The translations under genes were made by a program, and so were the position numbers. A stretch of DNA of 64,000 nt from a virus, in the IMG/VR virus record IMGVR_UViG_3300003154_000682, positions 10,354-74,353 of that record. One strand, written 5' to 3'. The notes below the pieces were generated by a model, which did not search any database, was not told where the DNA came from, and saw only the letters and a program-made list of their open reading frames with translations. Below, in pieces: positions 1 through 19,696 of the stretch. Within the stretch, counting starts at the first letter, position 1. Every line of letters starts with the position of its first letter.

Positions 1-1
1 T

Positions 2-3000
2 TTTATAGATAAGAATAGAAATGCTCTGGAAAAAAACTCACTGATGGTACCTGGTGTTCCAGAAGGTTTGGAAGGATTAAAACCCATTATTGGTAGTATA
101 CAAGATAAGATTGATTCTGCCATGACAGAACGTGAGAGACTTCAAACAACAGGAGTTCCTAAAACTGAAGGAGAATTTAAGACTTCAGGTGATGTTCAAA
201 AAGATATAGATAACTTAACATCTTTGATTAAAGAGCTAAATGCCGCTATTTCTAATGTGATTCCAAAATATGTAGCTCAAGCACAGAAACTTGATTACGA
301 TGGTGATCAAATAGAAATTCATTCTGCTAGATCTGTTGACGCTCGTAAAGATATAGAATCTCATTTTAAAAGATTCCATGAAGCTGAACCAAATAAAGAT
401 ATTACTACCCAAGACGTTTTTATGAAACGTTTTCTATCTGAAGCAGCCACTACTAAAACCACTGGTGATTATGTCTTTGGTGAAAGCACTGCTGCATTTG
501 AGAAAAAGTTCCCATCTGGAAAGGGCTTTGATTTTATGAAGAGTCCATTTTTAAATGAGAGTATGGATTACTTAGGACCAAAAGAAGCTTTGGGTGTTCT
601 TTCTGGAAAACCTGGTATTGGTGATGTATCCAATGTAATAAAAGATGTTCTATCAGACATGAATAGACCAGAAACAGAGATTGCTGGTATCATGGGCAAA
701 TTTGATAAAATGGATAAGTCCGATCCTAAACAATATATAGAAAATATAATGTCTGAAATAGCCTCATCTAATTCTGATATTTTAAAACAGGTTGAGGCGG
801 GGATTAAAAAAAGACTCCATGAAGAAAAGACTGGTGATACAATTGAAGCCCAATTATTTAAGATTCATACTGGACCAGAAACAGAAGGTATGTATCGTAT
901 GCATCGTCTTGGAGAAACTGAGGCTGGATTTGGTGGAGGATTAATATCCCAACAATCTGAAAGAAATTCTAGCGAATATTTTAAACAAAGAAATCCAGCT
1001 CTAAAAGCTGTAGGAGGTCGTCCAGAAGAAGAATTTCATACTATGATGAATGAAATGGTTCGTTTTGGTATTCAGAAAGGTATGGATGTTAAACACGCTG
1101 GAGAAAAACCTATTGCTGGAGAGATGGTTAACTACTTATCAAAGGGGCCAGAAGGTGCCAGTGCCCTTTGGGATAAAATTCAAAATGAAAAACCATATGC
1201 AGACCTTAAAGACTTTTCAAAGGACAGCGAAAAAGCTATCAGAATGAGAGTAGGTGAATTGCCTACATCAGAGATATTATCTGAAGCTAAGAAAGTTACG
1301 GAAAGTCGTGGCGGAAATGCTGGAGATTTAGATAATTCATCAAGGGAACAATTGATTAAGGTCCTAATCGATAAGGTAGGGTTCAAAGGATTTTTAGAGG
1401 AACTATCTCTTTTAGTCAAAAAAGATGCCGTCGAGGGACTAGTTGCACAGGCAAAGACTTGGTCTCCTGCTAAAAAAGGTAGTCCTGGAGGAGGTCTTCC
1501 ACCCATTAAGGGACAAAATCTTGAGATGTGGGCTGAGAATGCCGTTAATGCCCAAATAGCTAAGGGTAGTATTAGTGTAAGAGGTGATATATCTGAATCC
1601 CAAAATCCTTTATATGGCATGCGTACTTTCTTTTCATCTCCTAAATCTGAATATGATAAGTATAGAGATAAATTTGGTGAAATGCCAGTCCCTAAAGAAA
1701 AAGTAGCAGGCTTATCTGAAGAAGATACTAAAACTTATTCCTATAAATATAAAACGGCTAGAGCTACAGCTTCTAATATTCATCAAGAATTAAATGCAGC
1801 TGCTGCTGGATCATCTACTGGGGCATACTCAGATATGATAAGAGGTAGTATAGATACTCTTTATAAACAGCAAAAAGAAATAGAATCATATAATGATGAA
1901 CTTAAAAATTATAATCCAGAAGCGGCTAAAAATACTGATATGTCAGAAAGAGTTCTTCAAAGGGTAAATGTTAGTCCTTTAGCAAATAGAACTCTTAATA
2001 TGAATAAAGGAATGCGAGGAGAAATTGAAAGATTATCTGATTTAGCTGGTATACCAGGTTTAAGTGATTCAGAACAATTTGATATTTATAGAGAAAATGC
2101 TGATAAATTCGGTGAAAAGAAAAGAGAAGAGCTTGCATCCTCTGACTATGCTGGAAAAAGAAGAAAATCTCTGGAGTCTGAGACACCTAAAAAAAGTCCA
2201 GAAAAGATAGAAGAACAAATTAAAAGCGAAATGGATGCGGAAGTTGAAAATTATATTAAGCCTATGATAGAAAAGGCTCAAGCTTTAAAACAACTTGATC
2301 GCATTACAGATGTCTTTATTTCCAAGAAAAATGAAGGGCGTGTTCTTACAGATATGTTTCCTAGAGAAGATCAAGGTGCCCCTGATGTACCGCTCACAGA
2401 AGCTCGTAGAAAAGCTATTCAAGAGAGAATGTCCAAAGTTTCTTCAGAACGGCAAAAAACTCTTTTTGAATCAGAAAAGATGAGTAGCTCTGATATTCCA
2501 ACTGGTCCTGGTAGTGTAGGCACTTCTGGAATGGGGGTAGGAGGCGTTGTTCCTGTTCATATAGTAAGTGCAGCTTCTGGTGTAACCATAAATGTTAGAG
2601 GACTGGAAGGTGGAGGATATCTTCCCCCAGGAACAGCTTCCGGAGCTGCTAATGCCCCACTTGCTCAAACAGAAAAGGTAAATGATGATCTTTTAAAGTT
2701 CAAAGATGATATAGTAACATTAAGAGAGACTGTAGCTAAAACCAAACCTGCTTGGGAATCTGGACCAAGACCTAGTAAAGAATATCAATTTTCTCCAAAT
2801 GCTCTTTCTGGTGGAGGAAACGTTTATGGTAACGAACAGAATAAACCTCCATTAACTGAAGAACAACGTTTAGCAGAACAGCATGATAGATTGGTTAAAG
2901 AGCTCACAGAAAAATCAGAACTTAGTACAACTGCTCAATTGCATGCTGATTGGGGTACTCTTATTCATGCTAAATTTGAAAAAACTTTAAGTAAACAACC

Positions 3001-6000
3001 TAATGTTGAAGTTGAAAAACCTGGAAAATATACTCACCCTGAAGCTGGCATTATTTCGGGTGTTGCTGACGTTGTAGAATATAATACTCCTGAAAAGAAA
3101 GAAGGGGATATTTCTAAAGTAGTTGATATTAAAACAACTAATAAAAAAGAAATAGAAGATTTGGATGCTGCTATTAAAGCTGCTGGCTCCACTGATATCG
3201 ATAAAGTAATTGAAAAAGTTAATGATGATTTAAAGCGAAAACTCAATGACTATCTTAGTCAGGTCAACGCTTATTTAAAAATTTTTGGAGAAAGCGCTAA
3301 AGGTGAAATTAGATTTTATGATAAAAAAGATTTTGGAGCAGACATTGAAAAATTTACACCTTTAACAATGAATTTCAATGAGGAAAGATTCGAGAAAGAT
3401 ATGTCTCAGCTTACCAAAGCTAGAGATACCGTAAGAAAAGATCCAAATAAAAATTTCAGAAATACTGCAAATGTGGTGCCTAAACCAGAAGACTATGAAG
3501 GACCACCAGTTGAAGAACTTGATGCAGCTATGCGTATAGCAGAGGAGGCACTTGCTCGTAGAACTACTTTTAATCCTAGAAATACAGCCTCTAGTTATAT
3601 GAAAAGAAAAGAAGATACTGGTACTTCTGAAGAAATTGCAGCTAATACTGCAAAATTTGCTAAAAGTAAATTATATAAGGATTTAACTCCAGAAGATCTT
3701 GAAAGATATCTTGTACCACCACCTATAGCTGAAGGTAATGACGCTAAATCCTTACTTACAAATTTAACTACACTTCATGAACAATCCAAGCTCTATCAAA
3801 AAATGCGTGGAGTGGATATGGATTCTGTTAAAGGTATGCCTAAACAAGTTGGAGAATCCATAGGAAAAGTTTCTGAAGAAGGTCCTCAATACCAGAAGTT
3901 TATAGAACTTACAGATAAGCTTAAAGAAATGGAAACTCCAGATTTTACTGGTAAAGATTATATCAATGCATGGAAAATGTATCGTGCTGCAATTGGTGAT
4001 TATTATATTAAAAGAGCAGAGGCTGCACAAAAACAAATAGAAGAGTCTGATAAAGAGGGAGATTCTACTGGAGCTAATAGAGCATATGGTGATTTTAAAA
4101 AGAATACAATACAATTACAAGAATTTGTGCGTAGAAGTATAGGTAAGAAAACTGATTTATATACTGATGATAAAAGATTTGTATATCCAGGATTAGCACA
4201 AGCTGCTGGAGTTTACATGAGTCCTGCAGAAATTATGCATAAAGTTGGAGAACCTTTAGGAGATGACCAACAACTCATAGATACATTTAAAGGTGTAACC
4301 AAGGGTATTTCTAAAAGTGATAAGAAAGCACCTATCAGTAGTGCTAGAGATATTTTCAGGGAACTAACAGATGTAAATAAAGAATTAGAATCCACCGCAT
4401 CTGCTGCAGATAAATTTGGAAGTTTAGGATCAACGGCTTTCGATAAACTTACTGGACGTGTTACTAGACTAAGGGCTGCTCTACAAGATGTTATGAAACA
4501 GTCTGGTGGTGAGTTAGATGCTGAACAGAAGAAAAATTTAGAAAATATTATAGGTTATTTGAAAACCATTGAAGCCATGTATTCACGCATTCATCCAAAA
4601 GAAGCTGGTGCTCCAGCTGAATATGGACAAACTGGTGTAATACCTGTACCTAAATTTGAAACTCCAGAAGTTCAAGCTGCTTTACACAAAAGAAATATAG
4701 AATCTGTTAAACAATATTTTACTCGTCCAGAAGAAGAAGGTGGTCCTAAAATTGGAGAACGTTTTTCCTATCAAGAAAAAATTACGGGTGATGCTGGTGA
4801 AACAATAAAAAATTCTATCCATCATTTTCAAAAATATGGTGAAGAAATACAAGCTAGTGGTGAGAAAGTAGGAAAATTTAGTGAAAACAACCAAGACTTA
4901 ATAGAAAAGATGCAATCAGTAAATGCTTCTTTTGAGACTGCTATTGGTCGTGTTATTAGATGGGGTGCAGCATCTAAATTAGTATATGGTGGTATGTCAT
5001 ATCTGGGACATTCTTTAGATGAAATTTCAAAGATAGACACTCAGACTGCTCAACTAAAGATGACTATGAATCCTCAAACAACTGATTTTGAAAAATTAAG
5101 AAAATCTGCCGCCGGACTTGGTAAAGAATATGGAGTACCAGTTACCGATGTAATGAAGTCTATGGTTATTTATGGACAACAAGGTTTGAGTCAAGAAGAA
5201 ACTATTGATAGAACAAGAACTTCTACTTTAGCAACTAATGTTACCACCCTTAGTGGTAAAGATTCTATAGAAGCCTTAACCTCATCTATGAAGATATTTA
5301 GGGAAGAAGGCGAACAATCTATCAGATTTTTAGATGCTTGGAGCGAAGTTGAATCTAAGTTTGCCATTACCGCTGCAGATATGGCTAATGCTATTAGAAC
5401 CTCCGCTATGGCTGCCAAAACAGCTGGTATCACTTTTGATCAACTAAATGGTATCGTTGCTGCTATTGGTTCTACTACAAGACAATCAGGAAAAGAAGTT
5501 GGAACTTCTATGAGATTTATTCTTAGAAGAATGTATTCCGAAGAAGGTCCTAAAGCTTTGGCTAAACTTCCTACACCTATATCTTCCGTTACTGGAAGTG
5601 GTGAATTGAAAGAAGGTTTTACTGTATTAGGGGAATTAGCCGGGCAATGGAAAGATTTAACTTCTGCTCAACAAATGAACGTGGCTCAAGCTCTTGGTGG
5701 TACTAGACAATACAATACATTAATAACATTGATGGATCAATGGGATGAAGCTCTTAGGGCTGTAAAAGATAGTACTAATTCTAAAGGTGCCGCTGAAAGA
5801 CGTAATGCTGAGATAATGGCTACTTATGCCAAACAGATGGAACAAGCCAAAGCCGCTGCTACAGAATTGAAAATGGAAGTAGGTAAATTAGTTCTTCCTG
5901 TATTTTCTGCAGGTGTGAAAGGGCTTAAACTTTTTACTGAAACTTTAACTGCTATTCCAGGACCAATCAAAGCTGCTGCGGCGGGGGCGTTACTATTATT

Positions 6001-9000: not shown

Positions 9001-12000
9001 TGATCAGCTTTCCCAGAAATTAGTTGGTGATGTTGGTTTTAAAAAGGCTACTGAACTTGTAGACGACAATTTTCAACTATTCAAAAAAGATTTTACCACG
9101 TCTGAGTTCAAACAAAGGGCAGTATCTAATATAGGTTCTGATGAGTTTTTGAAAAAGATGGAGGAATATGGTACAGCTAAAACCATGTTTCCTTCTCCAA
9201 TTCCCAAAAGTAGTTTCGACCGCCCCAAATTTTCTGAGAGCGAAGAACTTAAAAATATTAAAAAGAGTCAAGAAGGTGATGGTAAAGAAACGTGGGTAAC
9301 TGGAAAGACTTTAGCTAGTACACAAGCTGCAATAGCCACAGCTTCTTATATAGAAAAATTAGGAAGAAATAAGATAGTAAAACAACTAGATGAACAAGTA
9401 AATCAATACGACTATAAAATAGCTAAGGCTAGAGAAGAAGGTAAAGGCGAGCCTGAAATTAGAGATTTGTCTAAGAAAAGAGAGGCTGTAAGTACAGAAA
9501 GAGATAAAGCCCAAAAAGATGTAGATTTTTATGGTATCGTATCTTCTTTAAGTGCCGCCGGTACGGCTGCATCTGAATTAGCAATGGCTTTCGGTTTAAC
9601 AGAAAGCCAAGTTAAAGGTTTGAATGTAGCAGCCATAGGTACTTATGGGGCTATGCTAACTGCTTCAAAAATAATTGGCGAGGACATTCCTGATAGTGCT
9701 AAAAAATTCGGAAAAGAATTTACTGGTGTAGCCAAAACAATTGTTGAAGGTGAGGAACCATCAGCTATGGCTTATGGTAGATTGGCTGCTTCAGGAAAAA
9801 ATCTTATGCAGGATACAGCCAAGCAAACAAAAAAAATATTTGGAAAAGATAATGAAGAACTGCAAACAGATTCTAGAAAAGCAGAGGAAGCTTCTTTAAA
9901 GGAGAGTTTTAATCAACAGGTTCCATTAGGTATGGAACTAAAAGATTCTGTTAAAAAATTTAGAGATAAAGGTGAAGCTTACGCTAAATATGATGACATT
10001 ATACAATCACAAAATAAAGAAAAGGGAGAATTATTCGAAAAAACAAAAGGATATAATCCAGAATCTGAAGATTACAAGAATATGTACAAGAGACACGATG
10101 CTGAATTATTCGAGTGGTCCAAAGGTAAATCTAAGGATGAAATTACAAGCATATCCAAAAGTCATCCATATATAGGTCTTGTTGGTAGTGGCAGTGCTTA
10201 TAGTAATACATTACAACAACAATCTGGAACTGAATTAGAGAGTATGGGTGAAAAAGCAAGACGTGGTGCAGAAATTCAAGGCGGTCCAAATAGACTTAGC
10301 CAGATGCTCCTATCTTACGGGGCTGCCGGTCTTACAAATTATGCTAGTAAAAAAGGCGAAGAAAGAACTGCTTTGTCCACTACAGAAAGTAAAATGAAAG
10401 AACAACAAGATGCCATGCAACAAGCAATGTTAGCTTACCCTGAAGCTACCAGTCAAGTAGTTGATGATATTAATAAAAGAAGAAAGGAAGCAATAGAAGT
10501 AGGTAAACCCTCAGATATAGAAACTACTACTAAGTCTATGGTTCAAAATGTGGATTCTGAATATCAACAAGTAGTTTCTCTTATCTTAAGATATGAAAGA
10601 GAAATAGCAGAAGCACATGCCAAAACTATTGCTGATATGGCTAGAGCACAGAATGAGCTAGCTGACAAAGAAATTCGTACTTCATATAAACAAGGTGCTT
10701 ATAACGCTGTAACTGGAGAATCAGAAAGACAATTTGGTAGTGCTGTTAATAGAAGATATTCCCTGAAGAATATAGTTCAGGGTGGAATGGGAAGCTATGG
10801 TGGTGATGTAGAGACTCCAGTATTACAAAGCGAACTTTCGTCTCAACAGCGTATATATTCAGAAGCAGATCCAAGACTTAAGAATGTAATCAATAATTAT
10901 GGTGATGCTGGAAATAGATTAGCAGCTGCTGGAAATAGAATGACTGAAATAAAACGTAGCATGAATGAGGAAGCTACGTTAGCAAACACATCTAAAGATT
11001 CTGATGTGGTAGACGCAGCTAAAAGACGTTATTCTGAATTAGCGGATGAACTACGAAAATTAATGCAAACTACTGACGATACAACTAAAAAGTTTAGAGA
11101 TTTTAGTAATGCATATATGCAACTAGATAGGTTTACAAAATCTGTTATAGAATTTCAAAATGCTTTAAAAGAAGTTGATATAAAATCAGCAGTAGGCAGA
11201 ATGCCGGATGTAATGAGAACTAATGAAATGAAGGACAGATTGTTAGGAGGATCTAGTCCTAGTGCTGTTCAAACAGTAACTCCTGAACAAGAAAGAATGG
11301 GTTTAAGAACTGGAATACCTTTAACACATCTACGTTCTGATAAATACACTATTGAAAAAGCTGAGCTAACAGATAGGTTACGTAATGAAACTGGACAACA
11401 AGCTGTTGATACCCAACAAAAAATAACGGATCTTGAAGAACGTAAAAGAAGAGATGAAGAAACTAGACAACAACAAAAGAATAATGAGGGATTAACTACA
11501 GAATTAGCTCCTTATGAAACACAGATAGCAGCATTAACAAGACTTAAAATGCAACCAGGTAACAAACCTGAGCAAACTAAGGCTTATTCTGATTATGCTG
11601 AAAAAATTGCTAAAGCCAATCTTGAAGCTACGCAGCCTATAACAGTCGGTCAGTATAAAAAAGAATTGGATATAAATAAACCAAAAATGTATAAAGAAGA
11701 TGTTGATACAGCAACAAAATGGTTAGAAGGGCGTAAAGATGATGAGATGGTCTATAGAGGAAATCTTCAACAAAAGAAATATTTAGCTACTACTATGCCA
11801 GAGGAAATAAAAAAACCTATGGAAGAGCAGCTTAAATCAGATGGAGAAAAATTTTCTAGTCCTATAACTGGTAAAATTGATATAACTAATAGCTACTTAA
11901 GAGCCATAGCCCAGAAAGAATTTGGAATAGATATTGCTAAACTATCTAAAGAACTTTATGGTACAAAGAGTCCTGAAGTTAAACAAGATGGAAGTTTTAT

Positions 12001-15000
12001 GTTTGGTACTGGAGGAAAAATAGCAGATTGGATAAGTAACTTCTTTAAACCTTCAGCAGATACTTCAGCTCCTGTTACACTTAATGGAAATGAGCCAGAT
12101 AAAGCAGAGCCACAACCTTCTGGATTTATGGATAAAATTAAAAGTTTTACTGATACTGGATTTGGTGACATATCATTTGGAGATATTAAGAATATGTTCA
12201 AATCCATGGAAGGACCTACACCAGTTAGTTCTGAAGCAACTAAAACCATAGGAATCTTAGCCACGTCTGGAGGAGAGGAGGGTGCATCTAAAGATTTAGG
12301 TGAAAGTTTTGTGAGTCCTATAGTTAGTGGTCTTGAAAAACTTGGTTCCATCTTGGAACAAATATTAGGGAAGGGAGCTATGATCCCCTCTTCTGAAGAA
12401 GCACCTTTAACTAGAGCTTCAGGTGGTCCTATATCTGGTCCAGGCACTGGTACGTCAGATAGTATACCAGCAATGTTATCTGCTGGAGAATTTGTTGTTA
12501 AGACCGCTTCAGTAAATAAAGTAGGTAGATCTATATTGAATCATATAAATGCTTTTGGAGCTATACCTAAATTTGCTGGAGGAGGCGAAGTTGATGAGGA
12601 CGATAAAGATAAGTTTAGATCCTCCCATTATTATACAGCAGAAGGCGAGGAGATAACTAGAGAAGACTATCAAAAAATGGTTAGAGATAGAGAACTATCA
12701 ATGGAACAATCTAAATCTAATCTAACTGAGTCCAAAACTAAAGGTGACCGTGCAAAGTATTTTACATCCTATGGTAATGGACCTATAAATAGTTATGATA
12801 ATAGGGAAGATTTTCAAAAAGCCAAAGATCAGTATAATGAAAATATTAGTAAATCCCAGACATTGGATAAATCAGCATCTGTTGGAACAAGAATAAATAA
12901 TCCATTTTCAAGTCTTGGGCAATATAGATCTAAAGAAGGTATGAATGCTGATAGTTCCAAAATAGCACATTCTGATGACAAAAAAGCTATAAGTAGAAGT
13001 GTTGACACATCTCTACCGGAACGCCAGCCCGCTTTCAAAGACGTAATAGATTCTACTAAGACACCTGAGACTGCTGCTATAGTAAGTGATTTATTAACAT
13101 ATCCAAGAGACACACAACAAGCTCATAGTTCTTATTTGTTATCGTCACATAAACCTACTATAGTTCCAGAAGATAGCGTAGCCAATACTTTTGAAACTAT
13201 TGGAAGAGGTATAAGAACTGGTTATGATTCTATAGGTAATGCAGCTACGGCTGTAGATAGTGCTATTTATCGCGGAACAAAAAATGCTATAGAAGTTGGA
13301 GAAGAAGTAGCTAGGGATCCTGGTAAAGCTCTTAATACAGCTGCGGATTTCTATGGAATTGATAAAGCCATTAAATCAATAGATAGTCTAATTTATCATG
13401 GTACAAAAAAAGCTTTAAAATTTGGATCAGAAGCAGCTGGAACTGTTACTGAGATAGCTAAAGACCCTGGTAAAGCCCTCAATAAAGCAACCGATTTCTA
13501 CGGTATTGATAAAGCCATAAAATCTATAGATAGTTTAATTTATCGTGGTACAAAGAGAGCAATCGGTATGGTAGAAAATCCTATGGATGATGAATTTCTT
13601 AGTTTAAGAAGTAAGATGGAGAAGACTAAAACACTTTGGAAAGATGTCAATAACGTTTATGATAAGGTAATGGGTGTTGTTGCTCACCCTTTGACTTGGG
13701 AAAAACCTTTGATGGAAAATATGTCTGATCCCTTCACCAATGAGCTTAAACGTTTTCCAGATTTCTTTTTTGACAGGGACTTTACCAGAAGTATGGGAAA
13801 GGGACTTGGAAAAGGTATAGGCAATACTGAATTGTTTGACTATATGTCCAATTATAAAAAACAACATAAAACTCCAGATAAATTATTTGGTAAATATTTA
13901 AATAGAGCTACTGACTGGACAGCTTCTGGTCAGATAGCTAATATTGAGGCTTTAGCTCATATAGGTTCTGGAGCTGTAGCGGGAGCCGCTTCTGGAATAG
14001 GTGGATTATCCACGTTAGCATTATCTAAAATGGGTTTCATGTCTGGCGACGCGTTAGACAATGCTAGTAAAACACAAAATATGCTATCTGATAGTGGTAC
14101 ATATACACCAAGATTTGCTCCTAAAAAATCTAAAATGGTTTCAGATATAATTGCTGCCCCTGCCGGAGCTTTAGGAGAAGTTGGAACATTGATGGGTAAC
14201 AGAGTGGCTGAAGTCTCAGGATCTGATACGATGGGGGCTCTTACAGCAACAACTATGCAAGCATTACCAATGCTGCTACCATTCGGTAAAGCTATAGCCA
14301 AAGCACCTTTTAGAATGACAGCTGATTTTGGTATAAAAACTCTAAGTAAAATGTCTGACCAACCTACCGCTCTTACTGCTGCCCAAGTCTCAAAATTTAT
14401 GTATGAGATTAATAGTGAATGGACCCCAAATGGTTTTATGGGTAAGACAGTTAAAAAAGGTGTTGGATCCTCCGCTGATTATATATATGAAAAATATGTA
14501 GCAGACGCTACTGAAAAGAAAGCATTTAATCTTAAAAGAAATAAACTTAAGGCAGCAGGGCTTACTTTTGAATCTATACGACAGTTCAATAAAAACGAAG
14601 CCAAAAAACTACACAAAGACCCAAATGATATAACAGGCTATGCTACTGGAGGTCCTATATTTGGGGCTGGTACTGCCACATCTGATAGTATTCCAGCAAT
14701 GGTTTCCAATGGAGAATTTATTGTTAATGCTGCTTCAACTAGAAAGGTTGGTAAATCAACTTTAGAACATATAAATACTTTTGGTTCCATTCCTAAATTT
14801 GCTGAAGGTGGTGAAGTTGATGAAGAAAAGGGTAAAAAAGGTTTTTCTTTTAGTAGAATATTCCGTGATAGTGCAGAAGGTGTGAATAAGGGTGTAGACT
14901 GGTTAAAAAATGAAAGATTAGATTTAGTTAAAAAGGGTACTACACAATCAGGACTTGATTTTACTGGTAATTTATTAAAACAGGGAGCTTTGGCAGGACT

Positions 15001-18000
15001 AGAGATAGGAACACGCGTGGCTAAATCTCCATTAGATACATTAGCAATGGGTGAAGGGGCTATTTCCTATTTAGGAAATAACAGTATCAAAGATATGACG
15101 TCTGACGTTTCTTCTATAGCCTCATCTGCTGGAGATTTTATTTCTAAACGTGGAATTGGTGGAACTTTAAAAGATATTGGTTCTGGTATAGGATCCTCTT
15201 TTATGGAAGATTTAAAAACTGGAGGCACTGGTATAACCGCTGGTATACTGGATGTGTTATCTCCAGGAAAATTCCTTTCCAAAACTTCTGATGCTAAAGA
15301 TTTTAAAAGTCTTGCAGGACTTAAATCACATTTTGATGACCTTGCTAAAGAAAATGAAGTGATGAAGAATATATCTTTTGAGTTTCCTTCAGCTTTAAAA
15401 AGCAGAGGTGAAGCAAAGAGATTAAAATCCCTTATAGATGATTTTTCAGAATACACTTCTAAAGCTCCAGAAGCACAAGGTCTGAATAGTGTATCTCTTG
15501 GAAAATCTGCTAGCAGACGATTACATGGTGAAGAAGCTGGGTTATATGATCAAGGCAATATATATCTCAATTTAAGAGACACAGAATTACCAAGAACATT
15601 TAAACATGAAATAGGGCATCATTTTGACGCAGAGTCTAGAACTGCTAGTGGTTTTGGTTTACTAAAAAAGTCTAAAGGTGAAGACATAGGTGGTCCTTTA
15701 AAACGTTTTGTAAGCAAAAGAGAATCTATAACCGACACCATAAATGATATTGTGGATTCAGGAGATAGTTCTAGATTTGTGTCTAACTATGCCTTTAAAA
15801 CTTTTGAAGACCAAGGGATCACAAGAGGTGCAGAAGAATTATTTGCTGAAGCATATTCCAAAAAAATATCTGCTGTACATGATCCTATTACTCAATTTCG
15901 TAAAGCTACTATCGAAGATCCAGCATTAAATAAAGCTTTTTCTGATCTTTATAAAGACGAGGATTTCAAACTTTTTAGAAGCAAGTCACAAAGATCTGAG
16001 GCATATAATAAAAGAAATTTAGACAATCGTATAAGAGGTTTTGCTGAAGGCGGATTAATTGGTGATGAAGAAGAAAATAAAAGATTGAAAGCCATCGCCT
16101 TAGAACAAGCAAAATCCTCACGTTATTATTCTGCTCAAGGAGATGAATTAAGTGAAGAGGAATATAAGAAAGGTCAATCACAACAGAAAAGGGCAGAAGG
16201 AGATGCTGAATTAACAAAAGTAACTTTATCCCTTAGTCCTCGTATGAGATTATACGCAGAACAAGAAGAATATCGTAAAAGAAAACTTGAACAATTAGAT
16301 GAGAAAATAGCAGAGGCAGGTGTTCCAGATCTTACTACCACAAATCAAAGTGTCCGTCATAAGAGTTTAAACTCTATGCTTGATGGAATAAAATCAGTTA
16401 GTGGTTCTGCAGGAGGAGTCGATGTTTATAGTCCTAATAGAGCACCTATGTATCATCCAGATGCCGATATTTATACGCCAGATGATAAAGGTGGCTACAC
16501 AACAAGTAAACCTACTTCTAATATAGCTTCGATATCTGATGATAAAAAGGTTCGTTATTTTACAGATTACGGTAAAGGCATACAAGAACAACCTAATGTG
16601 GACGCTTTTCATGCAGCAAAAAATGAATATAGAGGATTGCCTACATCCCAAGTAACATCAGCTCCTTCTGATATAGAAAAATTTAAAGTTGCTGAAAAAA
16701 ATATAGCTACTAATGACGCTATGTATAATCAGGCAGGATCGGTTATAGATTTTAAATCCGCAGCTAATATTGGAGGATCTGGTATACAAACTGCAAATCC
16801 ATCTGATAATTTAGATGAATTTCATAGAGGGCTTGATCGTTATAAACAGCTTGGTAAATGGAGTGGAGAAGAAAAGATTCATAAAGGATTTCCAAGTAAT
16901 GCCCCTCCATCATCTGGTGTTACTGCACTTGATACTCTTGGTGAGGTTAATAGTAGAATATCTATATCCGCTAAAGAAAATGACAATAAAAGACTTGAAT
17001 ATGCTATGGGTAGAAAAGCAAATTTTGATAAACGTATAGAAGATAGGAAGTTTGATACAGCTTTTAGCAGATTGCCTTCTGAAAGAGGAATAAGAAGATA
17101 TACTGACGATCCAACAAAGATTGATTCAAGGGGTGTTTCTGAAGGTAGTGGACCAATTCGCTATCAACCTATAATTAACAACAGACGTGAAGATGAGGAT
17201 AAAGCTCATGCTTATAAAGCTAGTGAACATGTGAATCCAAGCGTAGCATTTGATAATCGTACAGCTGGTGGAGAATTTGCTAGAGAAAATAATAAGAAGA
17301 TAAAATCAAATTTAGACTACCAGATGGGTGCAGCATTATTAAACACACCCGCACCATATGATCAATTAAATAGTTTACCTCTTGGTATCAGCCCAGTAAA
17401 AGAAAGCTATGATAAGGCTCAAAGAGCTTTGAAAGACATAGATAAAACAAGTCTTACCGAAGAGCAGAAGGATATAATAAGACAAAATGCTGAAAGAACC
17501 AAACTTGTTTTGATGGACTATCAAAAACATTATGCACAGGGTGATCTTAATGAACATTTAAAGACTAGCAAAACTAAAAAAGAAGCTGAATTAGCTGTAT
17601 ATGGCGGTACGCCACTTTTAAAAGAGGGTGAGGAACTTAGTCTTCGTACAAAAACTAAAGATAAAGGAATATACACAGGACTATCCACACTTGCTATAAG
17701 ACAAATTAGAGCTATAGAAGATAATGAAAAGACTGGTTTAACTAATTCAGTAGCTGCTAGAGACAAGTATCCTCTAGAATTTTATAATCTATATAATGAT
17801 AAATTGGCTTCTGATAAAAGAAAAGAAGTTCAAGATAAAATCAATAAAGAATTTAGTACTCCTACAAAATTTGCTACAATTGGTACTGTAGGGGTTTCGA
17901 CAGCTTCAGGTATTAGTGGAGGTAGACCTAGTCCAGGGGTAAAGACAAAAGAAAAAGAAGAAGATTGGTTTAAGTATATGGTAGGAACAACAAAAGGAGA

Positions 18001-19696
18001 TAATTGGTTTAATAATGAATTCAATTCAGGTATAATGGCACAAGTAAAAAATTATCTTGAAAAACAAAAATCGTCCCCATTGACTTCTAAACAGGTTGCA
18101 GACCAGATCAATTCTCCATATTTGTCAAAAGAAAGTGCTGCACAGGGAGCTAATAGTGCACCATTTTTTAGAGAAAAAGAAAAACAAGATGAGTACTTTA
18201 GTTCTATGTTTGGAGGCAGAGCATTTGCTGATGGTGGTTATTTATCAACGGGTTTATATAACACACCACTTTTCAAATCGATAATGGGGTACAATTCTCC
18301 TCCTATGATGCATAATGGTGGTGTTGTAGGAAAGACAGGAAACATTTTTGCTCAAGCTGGTGAAGTTATATTTCCTAAAGCATTTGCAAACGGAGGATTT
18401 GTAGGATTTGCTGAAGGTGGTCCTGTAGCTCAATCTTTAAATAGCTCCTCTATGATGAAGCTTGATACTTCTATGCTTGATAAACTTTCGAGTATGGAAT
18501 TAAAAGTAGAAGATAAGAAATTAAAAGTTGAGGATATTAAATTAAAGGTAGAGGATAAAGTATTAAAATTTGAAGATAAACCTGTAAAAATAGATGCTTC
18601 TGAAATGCTTAGTAAACTTGGAAGTATAGAATTAAAGGTAGAAAGTAAGGAATTAAAGTTGGAAGATAAGACTTTCAAAGTTGAAGATAAGATTTTTGGA
18701 GTCGAGGATAAAGTATTTAAGGTTGAAGATAAAACCATGAAGGTTGAAGATAAGACCATGAGAGTCGAAGACAAAACCATGAAGGTTGAAGACAAGACCA
18801 TGAAAGTTGAAGATAAAATCATGAAGGTTGAAGACAAAACAATGAAGGTCGAGGATAAATCTTTACAAGTTGAGGACAAGATTTTTAAAGTTGAGGACAA
18901 GACTTTCAGAGTTGAGGATAAGGCTTTTCAAGTTGAGGATAAGATTTTTAGGGTTGAGGATAAAGCTTTTCAAGTTGAGGACAAGATTTTCAGAGTTGAA
19001 GACAAAACGATGAAAGTTGAAGATAAAATTTTGGGAGTTGAAGACAAGACTTTTAAAGTTGAAGACAAAATTATGAAAGTCGAAGATAAAGCTTTTCAAG
19101 TTGAAGACAAAATTATGAAAGTCGAAGACAAGATTTTTAGGGTTGAGGATAAAGCTTTTCAAGTTGAAGACAAGATTTTTAAAGTTGAGGATAAAACTTT
19201 CAGAGTTGAAGATAAAGCATTTAAAGTAGAAGATAGAACCTTCAATATAGCAGATGTAGTTTTAAGAGTCGAAGATAAAGTTTTTAAAGTTGAGGATAAA
19301 GTACTCCGGGTTGAAGATAAGATTTTTAAAGTGGATGCTTCTGGGGCTTCAGGAAATGCTGTCGGTGGCGAAAAATTCGATGCATTGGCTCAAGCAGTTT
19401 CAGTTGTTAAAGATCAATTAGTACAAGTTAAATTAAATTTAGAAGATAAAATCACAATGTTAGGAGCTAATAATCAAACCTCTGATATAAATAGACAGGT
19501 AACATCAATAATAGATTCCAGATTAGCTAATGTAAATCAAGATATTTCTGGTCTAAGAAATACTGTTGGAGATATGTCTACCAGTATGAGGCAAAAAGAA
19601 GTTTTATATGATTACAAGTTCAGTGACTTAGACTATAGACTAAGTACTGCTTTAAATATAACAGGTGTAGGTGCAGGTAGGGGGTATATAACATAA
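2..19696 (+). CDS. Giant tail tape measure protein (5'-truncated, at least 6564 aa) fused to RNA polymerase, nuclease and metallopeptidase domains
   Basis: The frame is open from nt 2 (FIDKNRNALEKNSL-M44) and ATG44 has no RBS, so the gene starts upstream of the window. It has a TP901-type core at about 4931-5860, Ala/Gly-rich hydrophobic stretches and long helical regions. Two GTxTSDSIPAM...GEF motifs typical of tape-measure C-termini are present, and baseplate-like genes follow. Confidence 0.92.
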   Translation, partial: FIDKNRNALEKNSLMVPGVPEGLEGLKPIIGSIQDKIDSAMTERERLQTTGVPKTEGEFKTSGDVQKDIDNLTSLIKELNAAISNVIPKYVAQAQKLDYDGDQIEIHSARSVDARKDIESHFKRFHEAEPNKDITTQDVFMKRFLSEAATTKTTGDYVFGESTAAFEKKFPSGKGFDFMKSPFLNESMDYLGPKEALGVLSGKPGIGDVSNVIKDVLSDMNRPETEIAGIMGKFDKMDKSDPKQYIENIMSEIASSNSDILKQVEAGIKKRLHEEKTGDTIEAQLFKIHTGPETEGMYRMHRLGETEAGFGGGLISQQSERNSSEYFKQRNPALKAVGGRPEEEFHTMMNEMVRFGIQKGMDVKHAGEKPIAGEMVNYLSKGPEGASALWDKIQNEKPYADLKDFSKDSEKAIRMRVGELPTSEILSEAKKVTESRGGNAGDLDNSSREQLIKVLIDKVGFKGFLEELSLLVKKDAVEGLVAQAKTWSPAKKGSPGGGLPPIKGQNLEMWAENAVNAQIAKGSISVRGDISESQNPLYGMRTFFSSPKSEYDKYRDKFGEMPVPKEKVAGLSEEDTKTYSYKYKTARATASNIHQELNAAAAGSSTGAYSDMIRGSIDTLYKQQKEIESYNDELKNYNPEAAKNTDMSERVLQRVNVSPLANRTLNMNKGMRGEIERLSDLAGIPGLSDSEQFDIYRENADKFGEKKREELASSDYAGKRRKSLESETPKKSPEKIEEQIKSEMDAEVENYIKPMIEKAQALKQLDRITDVFISKKNEGRVLTDMFPREDQGAPDVPLTEARRKAIQERMSKVSSERQKTLFESEKMSSSDIPTGPGSVGTSGMGVGGVVPVHIVSAASGVTINVRGLEGGGYLPPGTASGAANAPLAQTEKVNDDLLKFKDDIVTLRETVAKTKPAWESGPRPSKEYQFSPNALSGGGNVYGNEQNKPPLTEEQRLAEQHDRLVKELTEKSELSTTAQLHADWGTLIHAKFEKTLSKQPNVEVEKPGKYTHPEAGIISGVADVVEYNTPEKKEGDISKVVDIKTTNKKEIEDLDAAIKAAGSTDIDKVIEKVNDDLKRKLNDYLSQVNAYLKIFGESAKGEIRFYDKKDFGADIEKFTPLTMNFNEERFEKDMSQLTKARDTVRKDPNKNFRNTANVVPKPEDYEGPPVEELDAAMRIAEEALARRTTFNPRNTASSYMKRKEDTGTSEEIAANTAKFAKSKLYKDLTPEDLERYLVPPPIAEGNDAKSLLTNLTTLHEQSKLYQKMRGVDMDSVKGMPKQVGESIGKVSEEGPQYQKFIELTDKLKEMETPDFTGKDYINAWKMYRAAIGDYYIKRAEAAQKQIEESDKEGDSTGANRAYGDFKKNTIQLQEFVRRSIGKKTDLYTDDKRFVYPGLAQAAGVYMSPAEIMHKVGEPLGDDQQLIDTFKGVTKGISKSDKKAPISSARDIFRELTDVNKELESTASAADKFGSLGSTAFDKLTGRVTRLRAALQDVMKQSGGELDAEQKKNLENIIGYLKTIEAMYSRIHPKEAGAPAEYGQTGVIPVPKFETPEVQAALHKRNIESVKQYFTRPEEEGGPKIGERFSYQEKITGDAGETIKNSIHHFQKYGEEIQASGEKVGKFSENNQDLIEKMQSVNASFETAIGRVIRWGAASKLVYGGMSYLGHSLDEISKIDTQTAQLKMTMNPQTTDFEKLRKSAAGLGKEYGVPVTDVMKSMVIYGQQGLSQEETIDRTRTSTLATNVTTLSGKDSIEALTSSMKIFREEGEQSIRFLDAWSEVESKFAITAADMANAIRTSAMAAKTAGITFDQLNGIVAAIGSTTRQSGKEVGTSMRFILRRMYSEEGPKALAKLPTPISSVTGSGELKEGFTVLGELAGQWKDLTSAQQMNVAQALGGTRQYNTLITLMDQWDEALRAVKDSTNSKGAAERRNAEIMATYAKQMEQAKAAATELKMEVGKLVLPVFSAGVKGLKLFTETLTAIPGPIKAAAAGALLLFGAFAKGVPIIDAIAETLDKGQSAFSGLGSSMSKQWDMTKFEVAGKGTGKDVTGLKTLNKQTADALNVGKDEKDKSFVKQGSSLSDFQTSIGKTLFMIKEVGQAYNGMIGKGAIGAGSIGEAIGEKFKGIGSFLTGGGVAKSFKDIKGMAIEQGFGAEAIREAFKSGPKAVLGKAAGAISFAPLVAGAASSVTGEAIDSSSEYVGSAGHKFIKDFASQNTGFVKSVAPLAVTVAALAPGIAAAYDEFKKLTGSAQDFAKAVEGARSKNDEQHKAITDQIKAYDTLDAKVKDIQKVSQPDVKAKRQEAGTYEAPLTSLQKIQKDVTGLSNQLADSNLNLVVGYDKLGNAVLKSTGNFKSYLTELEKLNTIKGLDIETGVLDKFIKDLTETGGSEKLKVVVKDLAESFPVIGDLVSRNIKVGPAKALEMASDDVNKRLNLKQKYPLSTAADADTQRLQKVLGSARDNFQSSYSDFDKVFKGITAPSSFKGLSPDKIQETLSSSTFKKAYELQLAIDPKFKLVKDVKPEDIMGKTILSALNPRAAGVMDVNSKFTKANLESTGVKARSDSKVYSGDIVTLMDSAAEKYNIAGNQAIIKMKKTSDGVISWVAEYFNTKTLKVEQRSMSEIEPLVDSIFPVQKIQEDLSYRMDALNTFVAGASAGLVGITGKKFKKDFSLGERFYSDIPTTTLLQGDFGYTPGKGAGKGYGKVAGTESYSKDIQEFYFEPMEKLKVMLEGTARNKLEGMDAETAPIDKGTYDEINKLLSVLKNNQAVLQFRAVFEDLMKEFAEGDRILQQNIATTRKRFETDKETAGLMQGTPKGIEDYQLGVQKVKDLTPRQALLRSSEPARKTAEELKILTLTSDSQKSQIDSTRKALVNEEVIKQVAKASGATLDKSQLGDFMEKVAKETDDKSPFRELTKVSSKTADNTGATVDRLDRLLENQGDSTTIKKMLESFGDNIGAGALDRQPKKIANALERVAEIRKSAEKSGDQDNVTRANVVLDQLSQKLVGDVGFKKATELVDDNFQLFKKDFTTSEFKQRAVSNIGSDEFLKKMEEYGTAKTMFPSPIPKSSFDRPKFSESEELKNIKKSQEGDGKETWVTGKTLASTQAAIATASYIEKLGRNKIVKQLDEQVNQYDYKIAKAREEGKGEPEIRDLSKKREAVSTERDKAQKDVDFYGIVSSLSAAGTAASELAMAFGLTESQVKGLNVAAIGTYGAMLTASKIIGEDIPDSAKKFGKEFTGVAKTIVEGEEPSAMAYGRLAASGKNLMQDTAKQTKKIFGKDNEELQTDSRKAEEASLKESFNQQVPLGMELKDSVKKFRDKGEAYAKYDDIIQSQNKEKGELFEKTKGYNPESEDYKNMYKRHDAELFEWSKGKSKDEITSISKSHPYIGLVGSGSAYSNTLQQQSGTELESMGEKARRGAEIQGGPNRLSQMLLSYGAAGLTNYASKKGEERTALSTTESKMKEQQDAMQQAMLAYPEATSQVVDDINKRRKEAIEVGKPSDIETTTKSMVQNVDSEYQQVVSLILRYEREIAEAHAKTIADMARAQNELADKEIRTSYKQGAYNAVTGESERQFGSAVNRRYSLKNIVQGGMGSYGGDVETPVLQSELSSQQRIYSEADPRLKNVINNYGDAGNRLAAAGNRMTEIKRSMNEEATLANTSKDSDVVDAAKRRYSELADELRKLMQTTDDTTKKFRDFSNAYMQLDRFTKSVIEFQNALKEVDIKSAVGRMPDVMRTNEMKDRLLGGSSPSAVQTVTPEQERMGLRTGIPLTHLRSDKYTIEKAELTDRLRNETGQQAVDTQQKITDLEERKRRDEETRQQQKNNEGLTTELAPYETQIAALTRLKMQPGNKPEQTKAYSDYAEKIAKANLEATQPITVGQYKKELDINKPKMYKEDVDTATKWLEGRKDDEMVYRGNLQQKKYLATTMPEEIKKPMEEQLKSDGEKFSSPITGKIDITNSYLRAIAQKEFGIDIAKLSKELYGTKSPEVKQDGSFMFGTGGKIADWISNFFKPSADTSAPVTLNGNEPDKAEPQPSGFMDKIKSFTDTGFGDISFGDIKNMFKSMEGPTPVSSEATKTIGILATSGGEEGASKDLGESFVSPIVSGLEKLGSILEQILGKGAMIPSSEEAPLTRASGGPISGPGTGTSDSIPAMLSAGEFVVKTASVNKVGRSILNHINAFGAIPKFAGGGEVDEDDKDKFRSSHYYTAEGEEITREDYQKMVRDRELSMEQSKSNLTESKTKGDRAKYFTSYGNGPINSYDNREDFQKAKDQYNENISKSQTLDKSASVGTRINNPFSSLGQYRSKEGMNADSSKIAHSDDKKAISRSVDTSLPERQPAFKDVIDSTKTPETAAIVSDLLTYPRDTQQAHSSYLLSSHKPTIVPEDSVANTFETIGRGIRTGYDSIGNAATAVDSAIYRGTKNAIEVGEEVARDPGKALNTAADFYGIDKAIKSIDSLIYHGTKKALKFGSEAAGTVTEIAKDPGKALNKATDFYGIDKAIKSIDSLIYRGTKRAIGMVENPMDDEFLSLRSKMEKTKTLWKDVNNVYDKVMGVVAHPLTWEKPLMENMSDPFTNELKRFPDFFFDRDFTRSMGKGLGKGIGNTELFDYMSNYKKQHKTPDKLFGKYLNRATDWTASGQIANIEALAHIGSGAVAGAASGIGGLSTLALSKMGFMSGDALDNASKTQNMLSDSGTYTPRFAPKKSKMVSDIIAAPAGALGEVGTLMGNRVAEVSGSDTMGALTATTMQALPMLLPFGKAIAKAPFRMTADFGIKTLSKMSDQPTALTAAQVSKFMYEINSEWTPNGFMGKTVKKGVGSSADYIYEKYVADATEKKAFNLKRNKLKAAGLTFESIRQFNKNEAKKLHKDPNDITGYATGGPIFGAGTATSDSIPAMVSNGEFIVNAASTRKVGKSTLEHINTFGSIPKFAEGGEVDEEKGKKGFSFSRIFRDSAEGVNKGVDWLKNERLDLVKKGTTQSGLDFTGNLLKQGALAGLEIGTRVAKSPLDTLAMGEGAISYLGNNSIKDMTSDVSSIASSAGDFISKRGIGGTLKDIGSGIGSSFMEDLKTGGTGITAGILDVLSPGKFLSKTSDAKDFKSLAGLKSHFDDLAKENEVMKNISFEFPSALKSRGEAKRLKSLIDDFSEYTSKAPEAQGLNSVSLGKSASRRLHGEEAGLYDQGNIYLNLRDTELPRTFKHEIGHHFDAESRTASGFGLLKKSKGEDIGGPLKRFVSKRESITDTINDIVDSGDSSRFVSNYAFKTFEDQGITRGAEELFAEAYSKKISAVHDPITQFRKATIEDPALNKAFSDLYKDEDFKLFRSKSQRSEAYNKRNLDNRIRGFAEGGLIGDEEENKRLKAIALEQAKSSRYYSAQGDELSEEEYKKGQSQQKRAEGDAELTKVTLSLSPRMRLYAEQEEYRKRKLEQLDEKIAEAGVPDLTTTNQSVRHKSLNSMLDGIKSVSGSAGGVDVYSPNRAPMYHPDADIYTPDDKGGYTTSKPTSNIASISDDKKVRYFTDYGKGIQEQPNVDAFHAAKNEYRGLPTSQVTSAPSDIEKFKVAEKNIATNDAMYNQAGSVIDFKSAANIGGSGIQTANPSDNLDEFHRGLDRYKQLGKWSGEEKIHKGFPSNAPPSSGVTALDTLGEVNSRISISAKENDNKRLEYAMGRKANFDKRIEDRKFDTAFSRLPSERGIRRYTDDPTKIDSRGVSEGSGPIRYQPIINNRREDEDKAHAYKASEHVNPSVAFDNRTAGGEFARENNKKIKSNLDYQMGAALLNTPAPYDQLNSLPLGISPVKESYDKAQRALKDIDKTSLTEEQKDIIRQNAERTKLVLMDYQKHYAQGDLNEHLKTSKTKKEAELAVYGGTPLLKEGEELSLRTKTKDKGIYTGLSTLAIRQIRAIEDNEKTGLTNSVAARDKYPLEFYNLYNDKLASDKRKEVQDKINKEFSTPTKFATIGTVGVSTASGISGGRPSPGVKTKEKEEDWFKYMVGTTKGDNWFNNEFNSGIMAQVKNYLEKQKSSPLTSKQVADQINSPYLSKESAAQGANSAPFFREKEKQDEYFSSMFGGRAFADGGYLSTGLYNTPLFKSIMGYNSPPMMHNGGVVGKTGNIFAQAGEVIFPKAFANGGFVGFAEGGPVAQSLNSSSMMKLDTSMLDKLSSMELKVEDKKLKVEDIKLKVEDKVLKFEDKPVKIDASEMLSKLGSIELKVESKELKLEDKTFKVEDKIFGVEDKVFKVEDKTMKVEDKTMRVEDKTMKVEDKTMKVEDKIMKVEDKTMKVEDKSLQVEDKIFKVEDKTFRVEDKAFQVEDKIFRVEDKAFQVEDKIFRVEDKTMKVEDKILGVEDKTFKVEDKIMKVEDKAFQVEDKIMKVEDKIFRVEDKAFQVEDKIFKVEDKTFRVEDKAFKVEDRTFNIADVVLRVEDKVFKVEDKVLRVEDKIFKVDASGASGNAVGGEKFDALAQAVSVVKDQLVQVKLNLEDKITMLGANNQTSDINRQVTSIIDSRLANVNQDISGLRNTVGDMSTSMRQKEVLYDYKFSDLDYRLSTALNITGVGAGRGYIT
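293..307 (+). other. DYDGD catalytic Mg2+-binding motif of a two-barrel (DPBB) RNA polymerase, inside the giant protein
   Basis: IPKYVAQAQKLDYDGDQIEIHSARSVDARKDI aligns by eye with beta-prime [32 protein letters not shown], including the upstream Pro/Val, the downstream QxxxH strand and the following helix. Confidence 0.8.
1073..1102 (+). other. QKGMDVKHAG: candidate AxDxxKxG-type motif of single-chain two-barrel polymerases
   Basis: It lies about 255 aa after DYDGD at the end of a predicted helix. It resembles the AVDxxKTG motif that follows DxDGD in cellular RdRP/YonO-like enzymes. Confidence 0.5.
2942..3330 (+). other. PD-(D/E)XK (RecB/AddB/Cas4-like) nuclease domain inside the giant protein
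   Basis: Motifs occur in the expected order: GTLIH (2954-2968), EVE (3008-3016), ISGVAD (D at 3068), VVDIKT (D 3125, K 3131), QVNAY (3260-3274). There is no Fe-S cysteine set. Confidence 0.8.
4931..5860 (+). other. TP901-family phage tail tape measure core domain
   Basis: FEKLRKSAAGLGKEYGVPVTDVMKSMVIYGQQG...ATNVTTLSGKDSIEALTS...FAITAADMANAI...GITFDQLNGIVAAIGSTTRQSGKEVGTSMRFILRRM...QALGGTRQYNTLITLM matches the family pattern. Confidence 0.9.
12416..12586 (+). repeat. 57-aa tape-measure C-terminal motif, copy 1 (ASGGPISGPGTGTSDSIPAMLSAGEFVV...IPKFAGGG)
   Basis: Near-identical 171-nt copy at 14642-14812. Confidence 0.9.
13253..13563 (+). repeat. 49-aa (147-bp) tandem repeat, about 2.3 copies (DPGKALNxAxDFYGIDKAIKSIDSLIYxGTKxA)
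   Basis: Copies start at 13316 and 13463, with a partial copy at 13253. Confidence 0.9.
14642..14812 (+). repeat. 57-aa tape-measure C-terminal motif, copy 2 (ATGGPIFGAGTATSDSIPAMVSNGEFIV...IPKFAEGG)
   Basis: Same length and motif as 12416-12586. Confidence 0.9.
15545..15860 (+). other. HExxH zincin metallopeptidase domain inside the giant protein
   Basis: GLYDQGNIYLN...TFKHEIGHHFD (HEIGH 15605-15619) is followed by SNYA (15782) and EELFAE (15833-15850), the layout of phage/polyvalent-protein MPTase domains. Confidence 0.78.
18503..19327 (+). repeat. 21-bp / 7-aa coding tandem repeat (K/R/Q-V-E-D-K-x-F/M/L)
   Basis: There are 33 in-register units at 18635-19327 (693 bp = 33 x 21) plus 4 units from 18503. 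Confidence 0.97.

Follow-up and report, generated by a model that had tools for sequence, protein, structure and literature searches.

The DNA analyzed here is a window of 64,000 nucleotides (nt), corresponding to bases 10354-74353 in one contig of 105,546 bp (IMG/VR record IMGVR_UViG_3300003154_000682) from a mesophilic groundwater metagenome, belonging to an uncultured phage. On its plus strand the window carries, at 2..19696, a single open frame of 6564 amino acids (aa) whose 5' end is open. On the full contig the same open reading frame (ORF) runs without stops from a TTG codon at 4130, preceded by GGAGG, to 30049, encodes 8,639 aa and occupies one quarter of the 105.5-kb contig. The window holds the C-terminal 6,564 aa, and the first 2,075 aa lie outside it, in the 6.2 kb upstream (contig 4130-10354, the same positions in locus L001). 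We describe this giant protein, of about 950 kDa, as a likely polyvalent one, in which a tape measure, an RNA polymerase (RNAP) and a nuclease are combined, together with a zincin-like metallopeptidase (MPTase) in some strains. An earlier note, based on the window only, had listed in one frame of at least 6564 aa the loop of a polymerase, a nuclease, a tape-measure core, a peptidase motif and a heptapeptide repeat; all of these features were found where it had placed them, in a frame which proved longer once the upstream sequence was added. Residues are numbered here on the full protein, by adding 2,075 to the number in the window translation, residue N corresponding to window nt 3N - 6226.

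The frame is real: its chance origin is excluded, because it contains 8,639 stop-free codons at 35% G+C, and more than 60 homologs, 5,000-8,000 aa long, run collinear with it. Nor is the gene an assembly artefact, since independent contigs cross the junctions between its modules. An 8.2-kb contig from run X3 (record 15) spans window 1-6039, thereby connecting the end of the polymerase to the nuclease and to the tape-measure core, and a contig from run X1 (record 6) spans 14758-16124, including the entire HExxH cassette and both its flanks; short contigs from a third study, at least 99% identical or exactly matching, are dotted along the gene. X1 is possibly the source sample, and hence not independent, while the remaining runs and studies are. 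DNA of the giant gene was found in groundwater metagenomes of several studies.

Conserved motifs and modelling strongly support the prediction that aa ~500-2900 form a single-chain RNAP with two barrels, which are separated by a large clamp-like connector. In an alignment of 76 sequences, sharing 24-63% identity with a mean column identity of 30%, the invariant residues include E1106 and D1107 of NFEDQIVISG (FED at aa 1106-1108), G1213, K1215, G1221, K1223 and G1224 of GRKLTTRYGSKG (aa 1213-1224), R2054 and P2056 of RFPFTG, located just upstream of the window, and D2173, D2175, G2176 and D2177 of DYDGD (aa 2173-2177; window 293..307, plus strand), the predicted Mg-binding loop of a beta'-like double-psi beta-barrel (DPBB). 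The family form of the beta-like motif is GRKxTTR[YF]GxKG, and that of the catalytic loop KLD[FY]DGD, both invariant or nearly so. We take E1106 and D1107 to correspond to the start of the RpoB NFEDS..SE motif, GRKLTTRYGSKG to the RpoB GRHGNKG motif of the beta barrel, RFPFTG to the RpoC RxP motif and DYDGD to the RpoC NADFDGD motif of the beta' barrel, in the order beta, then beta'. A sub-threshold match to the Pfam family RNA_pol_Rpb1_2 (E 0.055) falls exactly at DYDGD, the sequence at nt 293 from which a polymerase had been proposed in the earlier note.

Upstream of the window, an N-terminal helical region (aa 1-~450) is followed by the RNAP's N-terminal part, by the beta-like barrel and by the clamp-like connector (aa ~1565-1905). 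The C-terminal part, made of the beta'-like barrel with its catalytic loop and of a further conserved region, covers window 2..1874 on the plus strand, an assignment backed by family alignments, AlphaFold, VIA-align and Foldseek. Conserved blocks at aa 2351-2442, which include QKGMDVKHAG and lie after the beta' barrel, beyond the modelled segment, may represent the bridge helix and trigger loop. A Gly/Pro/Ser-rich linker (2414..2894, plus strand), with a moderately hydrophobic stretch at aa 2920-2939, joins the RNAP to the nuclease.

AlphaFold modelling of aa 1095-2294 with the 76-sequence alignment gave a mean predicted local distance difference test (pLDDT) of 83.7 and a predicted template modelling score (pTM) of 0.68. 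The barrel motifs are ~950 aa apart, and most 10-residue blocks of the connector which separates them have a mean pLDDT above 85. When the model was compared by Foldseek with 350,542 PDB chains, the top 50 matches were, without exception, subunits of the beta'/Rpb1/A190 type. In VIA-align comparisons, ten RNAP largest subunits aligned model residues 490-1130 with their N-terminal ~500-630 residues, through the catalytic loop (Z 10.2-12.5), and beta-type subunits aligned their barrel region with model residues 1-~430 (Z 7.8-8.7). Both barrels were matched by QDE-1 (Z 11.3), by P74-26 gp62 (Z 8.6) and by P23-45 gp96 (Z 8.2). An isolated archaeal RNAP clamp could be superimposed on model residues 470-809 (Z 8.5), and designed DPBBs on residues ~812-1090 (Z 8.0-8.7; root-mean-square deviation 2.1-2.4). 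Matches to helical bundles, of similar Z, are uninformative, landing on a helical hairpin, an insert within the beta' barrel. RNA synthesis by this module is predicted from its fold and motifs.

Queried as a single sequence in PDB, Pfam and PHROGs, the N-terminal 2,457 aa returned no useful match. The match obtained with the RNAP profile in PDB was rejected, being to a coiled coil only, and maps to the same helical hairpin. Because of this insert the RxP and DxDGD motifs (aa 2054-2177, straddling the window start) are spaced by 116 residues. In a published survey of viral two-barrel RNAPs (PMC10770324, Supplementary Data 4) the motif filter allowed 100 residues between RxP and DxDGD; the family described here could have slipped past it, since its spacing exceeds that limit.

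The nuclease module lies at 2942..3434 on the plus strand (aa ~3056-3220). Among 28 homologs, sharing 19-43% identity, the invariant columns are G3060 of GTxxH (GTLIH here), E3080, G3095 and D3098 of GxxD, D3117 and K3119 of DIKT, Q3162 and Y3166 of SQxNxY, and R3216; a helical insert of ~40 aa precedes QxxxY. The family profile matches the Cas4 protein SSO0001 (PDB 4ic1) with an E of 1.9e-4 and the first three motif blocks aligned, and individual family members match PDDEXK_1 and VRR_NUC. In a protein-language-model search (Atlas), all neighbours of the module that bear a family assignment are PD-(D/E)XK nucleases (PDDEXK_1, Cas4, YqaJ); single-sequence searches against PDB, Pfam and PHROGs yielded nothing useful. 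Its identity as a PD-(D/E)XK nuclease, as the earlier note had read it, and more closely as one of the RecB/Cas4 type, is well supported by invariance and profile match. The four-cysteine iron-sulphur (Fe-S) cluster of Cas4 proper, AddB and Dna2 is absent, the protein containing no cysteine at all, and on this ground we filed the module as RecB-like PD-(D/E)XK rather than Cas4.

The nuclease behaves as a discrete unit, since 5 of 32 homologs miss precisely the block of ~300 aa at its position. As judged from sequence, the presence of a polymerase together with some nuclease is the rule in the family, and the nuclease type varies. A distant homolog, P0033, has no PD-(D/E)XK module and features at its N-terminus, at aa 198-314, an RNase T-type DEDD exonuclease domain (PF00929). 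PF00929 also appears in the precomputed Pfam list of P0032, which retains the PD-(D/E)XK segment.

The giant ORF certainly contains a TP901-type tape-measure core, as proposed in the earlier note: PF10145 is matched by sequence at nt 5099-5701 over its full length (profile 1-201/201) with an E of 4.2e-25 and 89.2 bits, against a gathering cut-off of 33.2, and eight PHROG tape-measure families match the ORF, the best with an E of 8.5e-60. On these matches the tape-measure region proper is placed at 4823..9493 on the plus strand. A Kyte-Doolittle scan highlighted two hydrophobic segments, at nt 5945-6049 (aa 4057-4091) and 6662-6733 (aa 4296-4319), plus strand, which probably insert into a membrane.

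After the core the protein extends for ~4,500 aa, closing in exchangeable cassettes bounded by FAxGG. This part, entirely on the plus strand, includes two copies of a tape-measure C-terminal module (GGPI..SDSIPA..GEFVV..FAGGGEV; FAxGG in the general form), which most homologs carry in a single copy. The first copy, at 12416..12600 (aa 6205-6270), was recognized by PHROG tape-measure matches, by a motif scan and as a 185-nt direct repeat (D1); the second, 2,226 nt downstream at 14642..14826 (aa 6950-7015), is 76% identical to it in DNA and was likewise matched by PHROG tape-measure families. Arrays of the heptapeptide KVEDKxF, with a 21-bp period in Tandem Repeats Finder, lie at 18498..19332: ~31 copies at 18653-19300 and ~4 copies each at 18498-18580 and 18613-18691, a row of 63-nt period carrying the main array on to 19332. 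This is the repeat counted in the earlier note as 33 units; aa 8244-8512 contain 32 VED[KR] units. The protein closes with a conserved end domain (19274..19693, aa ~8500-8639), which aligns, at 23-49% identity, with the very end of most full-length homologs.

A strain-variable cassette at 14808..16063 (plus strand), bounded by FAEGG-coding 14-mers at 14798 and 16040, was defined by strain joints, repeats, modelling and Atlas features. It contains a probable zincin-like (MPTase) domain, with HEIGH at nt 15605-15619 (aa 7277) and an EELFAEA helix downstream. The HExxH segment is present in only 3 of ~120 collected homologs (P0007, P0010 and, partly, P0016); across the four sequences H, E, G and H are invariant, P0007 reading HExxxH, and E-x-FAE is kept in three. 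Pfam searches of the region gave nothing significant, and single-sequence PDB and PHROG searches were likewise unhelpful; no standalone homolog of the cassette was found, the only giant in that search being P0007. Its language-model neighbours include the ATLF and Peptidase_M90 clusters. The better half of the AlphaFold model consists of a helix, three strands and the HExxH helix, and all structural matches using this confident half are zincins: the catalytic domain of lethal factor (Z 7.7), PPEP-2 (6.6), Wss1 (6.2, twice) and aminopeptidase A (6.0). We lean towards considering the module a zincin-like MPTase of the polyvalent-protein type. Of the peptidase claimed in the earlier note, the motif at 15605 and the zincin affinity stood, but the support is moderate, and the metallopeptidase is a rare cassette, not a core part of the family protein.

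In-frame strain joints connect 14808 to 16036 in runs X1 and X3, and 14808 to 16063 in run X2, the intervening sequence being absent or replaced. A word of ~14-21 nt encoding F-A-x-G-G occurs in six copies in the C-terminal third of the protein, at window 12572, 14798, 16040, 18224, 18347 and 18407, one of which has diverged to F-A-Q-A-G. The coincidence of the strain breakpoints with the copies at 14798 and 16040 suggests that FAxGG-bounded C-terminal cassettes are exchanged by recombination at these words, in line with the partition of the C-terminus by FxxGG motifs put forward earlier. The extra length of the protein with respect to its relatives (8,639 aa versus at most 7,998) is accounted for by the HExxH cassette and a duplicated 742-aa segment. 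Strains differ elsewhere as well: in runs X1 and X3 a 378-nt stretch of the tape-measure extension (window 8848-9227) is swapped for 348 other letters, and at 18771-19267 the same runs have 23 fewer heptad units, with one 21-nt unit added at 18803 in X2. The differences in heptad number may reflect either real copy-number variation or collapse of the repeats in short-read assembly.

The giant ORF contains no cysteine in 8,639 aa. Other contig ORFs of at least 150 aa contain 0-6.5%, typically ~1-2%, which would predict about 100 cysteines in the giant ORF. The same bias holds in the family: the 64 homologs longer than 5,000 aa total 462,920 residues, of which 27 are cysteines (median 0). Cysteine is avoided in the RNAP and nuclease modules as strictly as in the ruler part; cellular relatives of both enzymes use cysteine-bound zinc or Fe-S. 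We read this avoidance as the effect of selection on a chain stored extracellularly and threaded through a narrow channel, which would indirectly support the whole chain as virion cargo.

A word-index search retrieved 32 homologs of 3,700-7,900 aa, with 27-56% identity, collinear over most of their length. An exhaustive HMMER scan with aa 1200-2399 against 1.84 billion representatives brought up 106 proteins. Of the full-length ones, almost all measure 6,400-8,000 aa and carry the module at the same position. The RNAP module is carried by 50 IMG/VR viral contigs, some relatives lying on contigs of up to 270 kb. In the closest IMG/VR relative, at 58-59% identity, the same two genes precede the frame, which covers at least 4,598 aa and has not closed where the contig stops. 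A tblastn search of the RNAP module and of the cassette against 50,697 deposited phages gave no match. A scan of 185,579 species genomes gave three matches only, L006-L008, on 16-25-kb contigs of metagenome-assembled genomes, binned with Woesearchaeota, Fermentibacteria and Gammaproteobacteria. These discordant labels offer no clue to the host; since they are discordant and the contigs short, we suspect that they are viral contigs mis-binned into such genomes.

The ORFs downstream of the giant gene contain F5/8 type C, CBM96 and immunoglobulin (Ig)-like domains, as found in tail fibres and baseplates. F5/8 type C (galactose-binding-like) domains occur in a 3,004-aa ORF at window 45478-54492 and, along with DUF2341, in an 858-aa ORF at 57451-60027; a 612-aa ORF at contig 74035-75873 carries CBM96 and disaggregatase repeats. 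The three are likely receptor-binding tail proteins. Another ORF, of 935 aa (window 29493-32300), has NDFDSD at aa 583 and satisfies the [RK]xP..DxDxD filter. Considered as a second RNAP, it was rejected, because it is beta-rich, gives a weak Ig-like match and lacks the beta-like motif; a structural protein of the tail is its probable identity.

On the contig's right arm lie genes for a beta clamp, RecA, DnaB and DnaG, for glycosyltransferases and for a separate nuclease with a PDDEXK_1 domain. The nuclease, stand-alone and of the PDDEXK_1/Cas4/Dna2-like type (E 1e-25), lies at contig 91556-92719 (L003 1557-2717), beside the RecA, DnaB, DnaG and beta clamp genes; at 94943-97126 (L003 4944-7124) a glycosyltransferase gene is split by an intein with a LAGLIDADG homing endonuclease. 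Only 9 intergenic gaps of 40 nt or more were counted. Head genes were not found among the contig ORFs scanned, nor was a terminal repeat; since contigs of relatives reach 270 kb, the contig is probably a genome fragment.

The closest known system is gp96 of Thermus phage P23-45 (Chaban et al. 2024, PMC10770324; PDB 8h2m, 8h2n), rightly cited as a precedent in the earlier note: an Oshimavirus tape measure of 5,002 aa with an RNAP, membrane segments and a metallopeptidase, which has homologs in P74-26, G20c and TSP4. The fused RNAP is present in P23-45 virions, and active; it is flat and clampless, with a disordered connector of 67 aa, and its authors argue that flatness permits passage through the tail (PMC10770324). 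The two proteins share an N-terminal single-chain two-barrel RNAP with D[FY]DGD, matched structurally over both barrels, followed by membrane segments and a metallopeptidase, only a probable one in the present protein, and the expected role, transcription of the first genes to enter. In contrast, no sequence similarity is detectable between them; the present protein is larger (8,639 versus 5,002 aa) and has its catalytic loop at aa 2173 instead of 779; the ~950-aa separation is confidently predicted to fold into a clamp-like domain; the best structural matches are cellular beta'/Rpb1 chains (Z 10-12.5); a conserved PD-(D/E)XK nuclease lies between polymerase and ruler; and the source is mesophilic. 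A 5,013-aa protein, P0101, considered as a sequence bridge to gp96, was rejected, being a distant member of the present family and not of gp96's.

Phages and conjugative elements also encode large proteins, termed polyvalent, which combine several enzymatic domains in one chain (Iyer et al. 2017, PMC5512222); among them are virion RNAPs of the N4 and crAss types, joined to zincin-like MPTases. Virion delivery applies to those proteins, and we infer it for the present one. Their MPTase consists of a core helix, a three-stranded sheet, an HExxH helix and a Glu helix, a description that the candidate MPTase found here would fit, and has a documented HExxxH variant shared by P0007; lethal factor is the nearest solved fold of the module found here. 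Polyvalent proteins are, in contrast, head-packaged ejection proteins, the word 'tape' having no occurrence in that paper, and the N4 polymerase is T7-like, not two-barrel. With Cas4/RecB nucleases (SSO0001, 4ic1) the nuclease shares the motifs G-x-x-x-H, E, G-x-x-D, D-x-K and Q-x-x-x-Y in the same order, here without Fe-S and embedded in a tape measure. Tape measures of the TP901-1 type show the same full-length core followed by hydrophobic segments, upstream of tail-tip and fibre genes, but they are about ten times shorter and have no comparable enzymatic modules at both ends. In the open-access literature we found no paper on the present lineage, on a nuclease inside a tape measure or on a clamp-bearing tape-measure-fused polymerase. 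What appears to be new is the lineage, the clamp-bearing polymerase fused to a tape measure, the nuclease, the size and the near-total avoidance of cysteine. The suggestion of the earlier note that no tape measure with all three activities was known holds for the nuclease, the lineage and the scale, but not for the combination of RNAP and metallopeptidase, already published for P23-45.

In lambda-type tails the tape measure has its C-terminus at the tip and is ejected on infection. By analogy with gp96 (PMC10770324), the giant protein would occupy the lumen of the tail in the same orientation, and its toolkit would be delivered into the host by tail ejection, which, as part of the best explanation taken as a whole, we consider likely. 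The hydrophobic segments would help to form a channel across the envelope; the N-terminal polymerase and nuclease would exit last, adjoining the leading DNA end, and the polymerase would transcribe the first-entering genes, independently of the host enzyme. For the nuclease, our first choice of target would be host DNA or defence nucleic acids; as a second choice, it could resect the entering DNA end for recombination or circularization, the phage encoding RecA; as a third, it could make single-stranded template accessible to the polymerase. Where a zincin is present, it might cleave a target in the host or the polyprotein itself, roles considered for MPTases in PMC5512222.

Several observations weigh against this picture. 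No sequence search, by phmmer or by profile against PDB, including 8h2m and 8h2n, ties the RNAP module to a solved RNAP, and the single Foldseek matches are not significant (E 0.15-0.8, the best 0.15); for gp96, too, sequence searches alone barely detected the RNAP, according to its authors (PMC10770324). The AlphaFold model of the HExxH cassette, built on four sequences, is poor (pLDDT 56, with block means of 61-81 for residues 11-90), and the Z values of the zincin matches, the best being 7.7, fall within the 'common' range of the aligner: the structure predictions recommended earlier recovered the DPBB, but only a weak zincin. The genes flanking the giant ORF match no family and give no hint of the tail type. 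Finally, a tail tube could accommodate only with difficulty a folded polymerase of ~2,400 aa that includes a clamp-like domain.

This bulk, excessive as it looks for a tail lumen, speaks for a polyprotein that the zincin or a prohead-type protease would cleave at FAxGG sites or the Gly/Pro linker, either ahead of assembly or in its course, so that only the ruler would enter the virion and polymerase and nuclease would act inside the cell. Tape measures and polyvalent proteins are indeed often processed, as is P1 DdrB (PMC5512222), long flexible linkers separate the modules, and no second RNAP was found on the contig which could serve as the intracellular enzyme. Yet fusion and domain order are kept in more than 60 giants down to 27% identity, with only a few shorter, possibly truncated records; the RNAP of P23-45, similarly fused, sits active in virions; polymerase and nuclease avoid cysteine as strictly as the ruler, whereas cytoplasmic enzymes of the phage have normal cysteine contents; and the candidate cutter, the zincin, is absent from nearly all family members. 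On balance, we regard such processing as unlikely. The confinement of similarity with known RNAPs to short motifs might, in turn, indicate that the polymerase- and nuclease-like modules are inactive relics, retained as bulk, spacer or plug of an over-long ruler. This is very improbable, given that the family-invariant residues are the catalytic ones (in DxDGD the three Asp, in the beta-like motif the two Lys, and in the nuclease D, D-x-K and Q-x-x-x-Y) in surroundings drifted to 24-40% identity. As to several genes having been joined in a chimeric contig or by gene calling, metagenomic assembly from samples with several related strains might produce such a result, and the C-terminal third does show strain-level replacements and differences in repeat number; the probability is nevertheless negligible, in view of the bridging contigs from other runs and studies, of the IMG/VR relative with the same upstream genes and a long open frame at 58% identity, and of the occurrence of the RNAP module in 50 IMG/VR contigs and 106 protein clusters, where almost all full-length cases are giants like this one.

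Delivery of the whole chain through the tail remains, in our opinion, the preferred reading, and it has consequences for tail size. The lambda tape measure, gpH, spans ~1.5-1.75 angstroms of tail per residue. At this ratio the tail would measure ~0.75-0.85 micrometre if the protein acts as a ruler from the TP901 core onward, and 1.3-1.5 micrometres if the whole chain does. The prediction is of a tail near or above the current record. The ratio agrees with P23-45/P74-26, where, according to a passage in PMC10034513, a tail almost 1 micrometre long accompanies ~5,000 aa. A more ambitious version, which we put forward only tentatively and hold to be rather doubtful as a whole, is that the fusion of RNAP and tape measure arose independently of the Thermus phages, in a widespread mesophilic lineage where a clamp-bearing, cellular-like polymerase is permanently paired with a nuclease; the cysteine-free chain of ~950 kDa would thread unfolded through a tail possibly longer than 1 micrometre and refold in the host, the nuclease might resect entering or host DNA in concert with transcription, and the FAxGG cassettes would reflect recombination-driven exchange of effectors.

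Tape-measure-fused polymerases have so far been known from one group of thermophilic phages. The family described here indicates that the strategy is widespread in groundwater, wastewater and pond viromes, and its clamp-bearing enzyme puts to the test the argument that a flat, clampless shape is what permits passage through the tail. It would represent an extreme case of a near-megadalton enzyme chain stored in, and expelled through, a tail; as a natural cysteine-free single-chain RNAP accompanied by exchangeable cassettes, it could show how phages swap the effectors that they eject.

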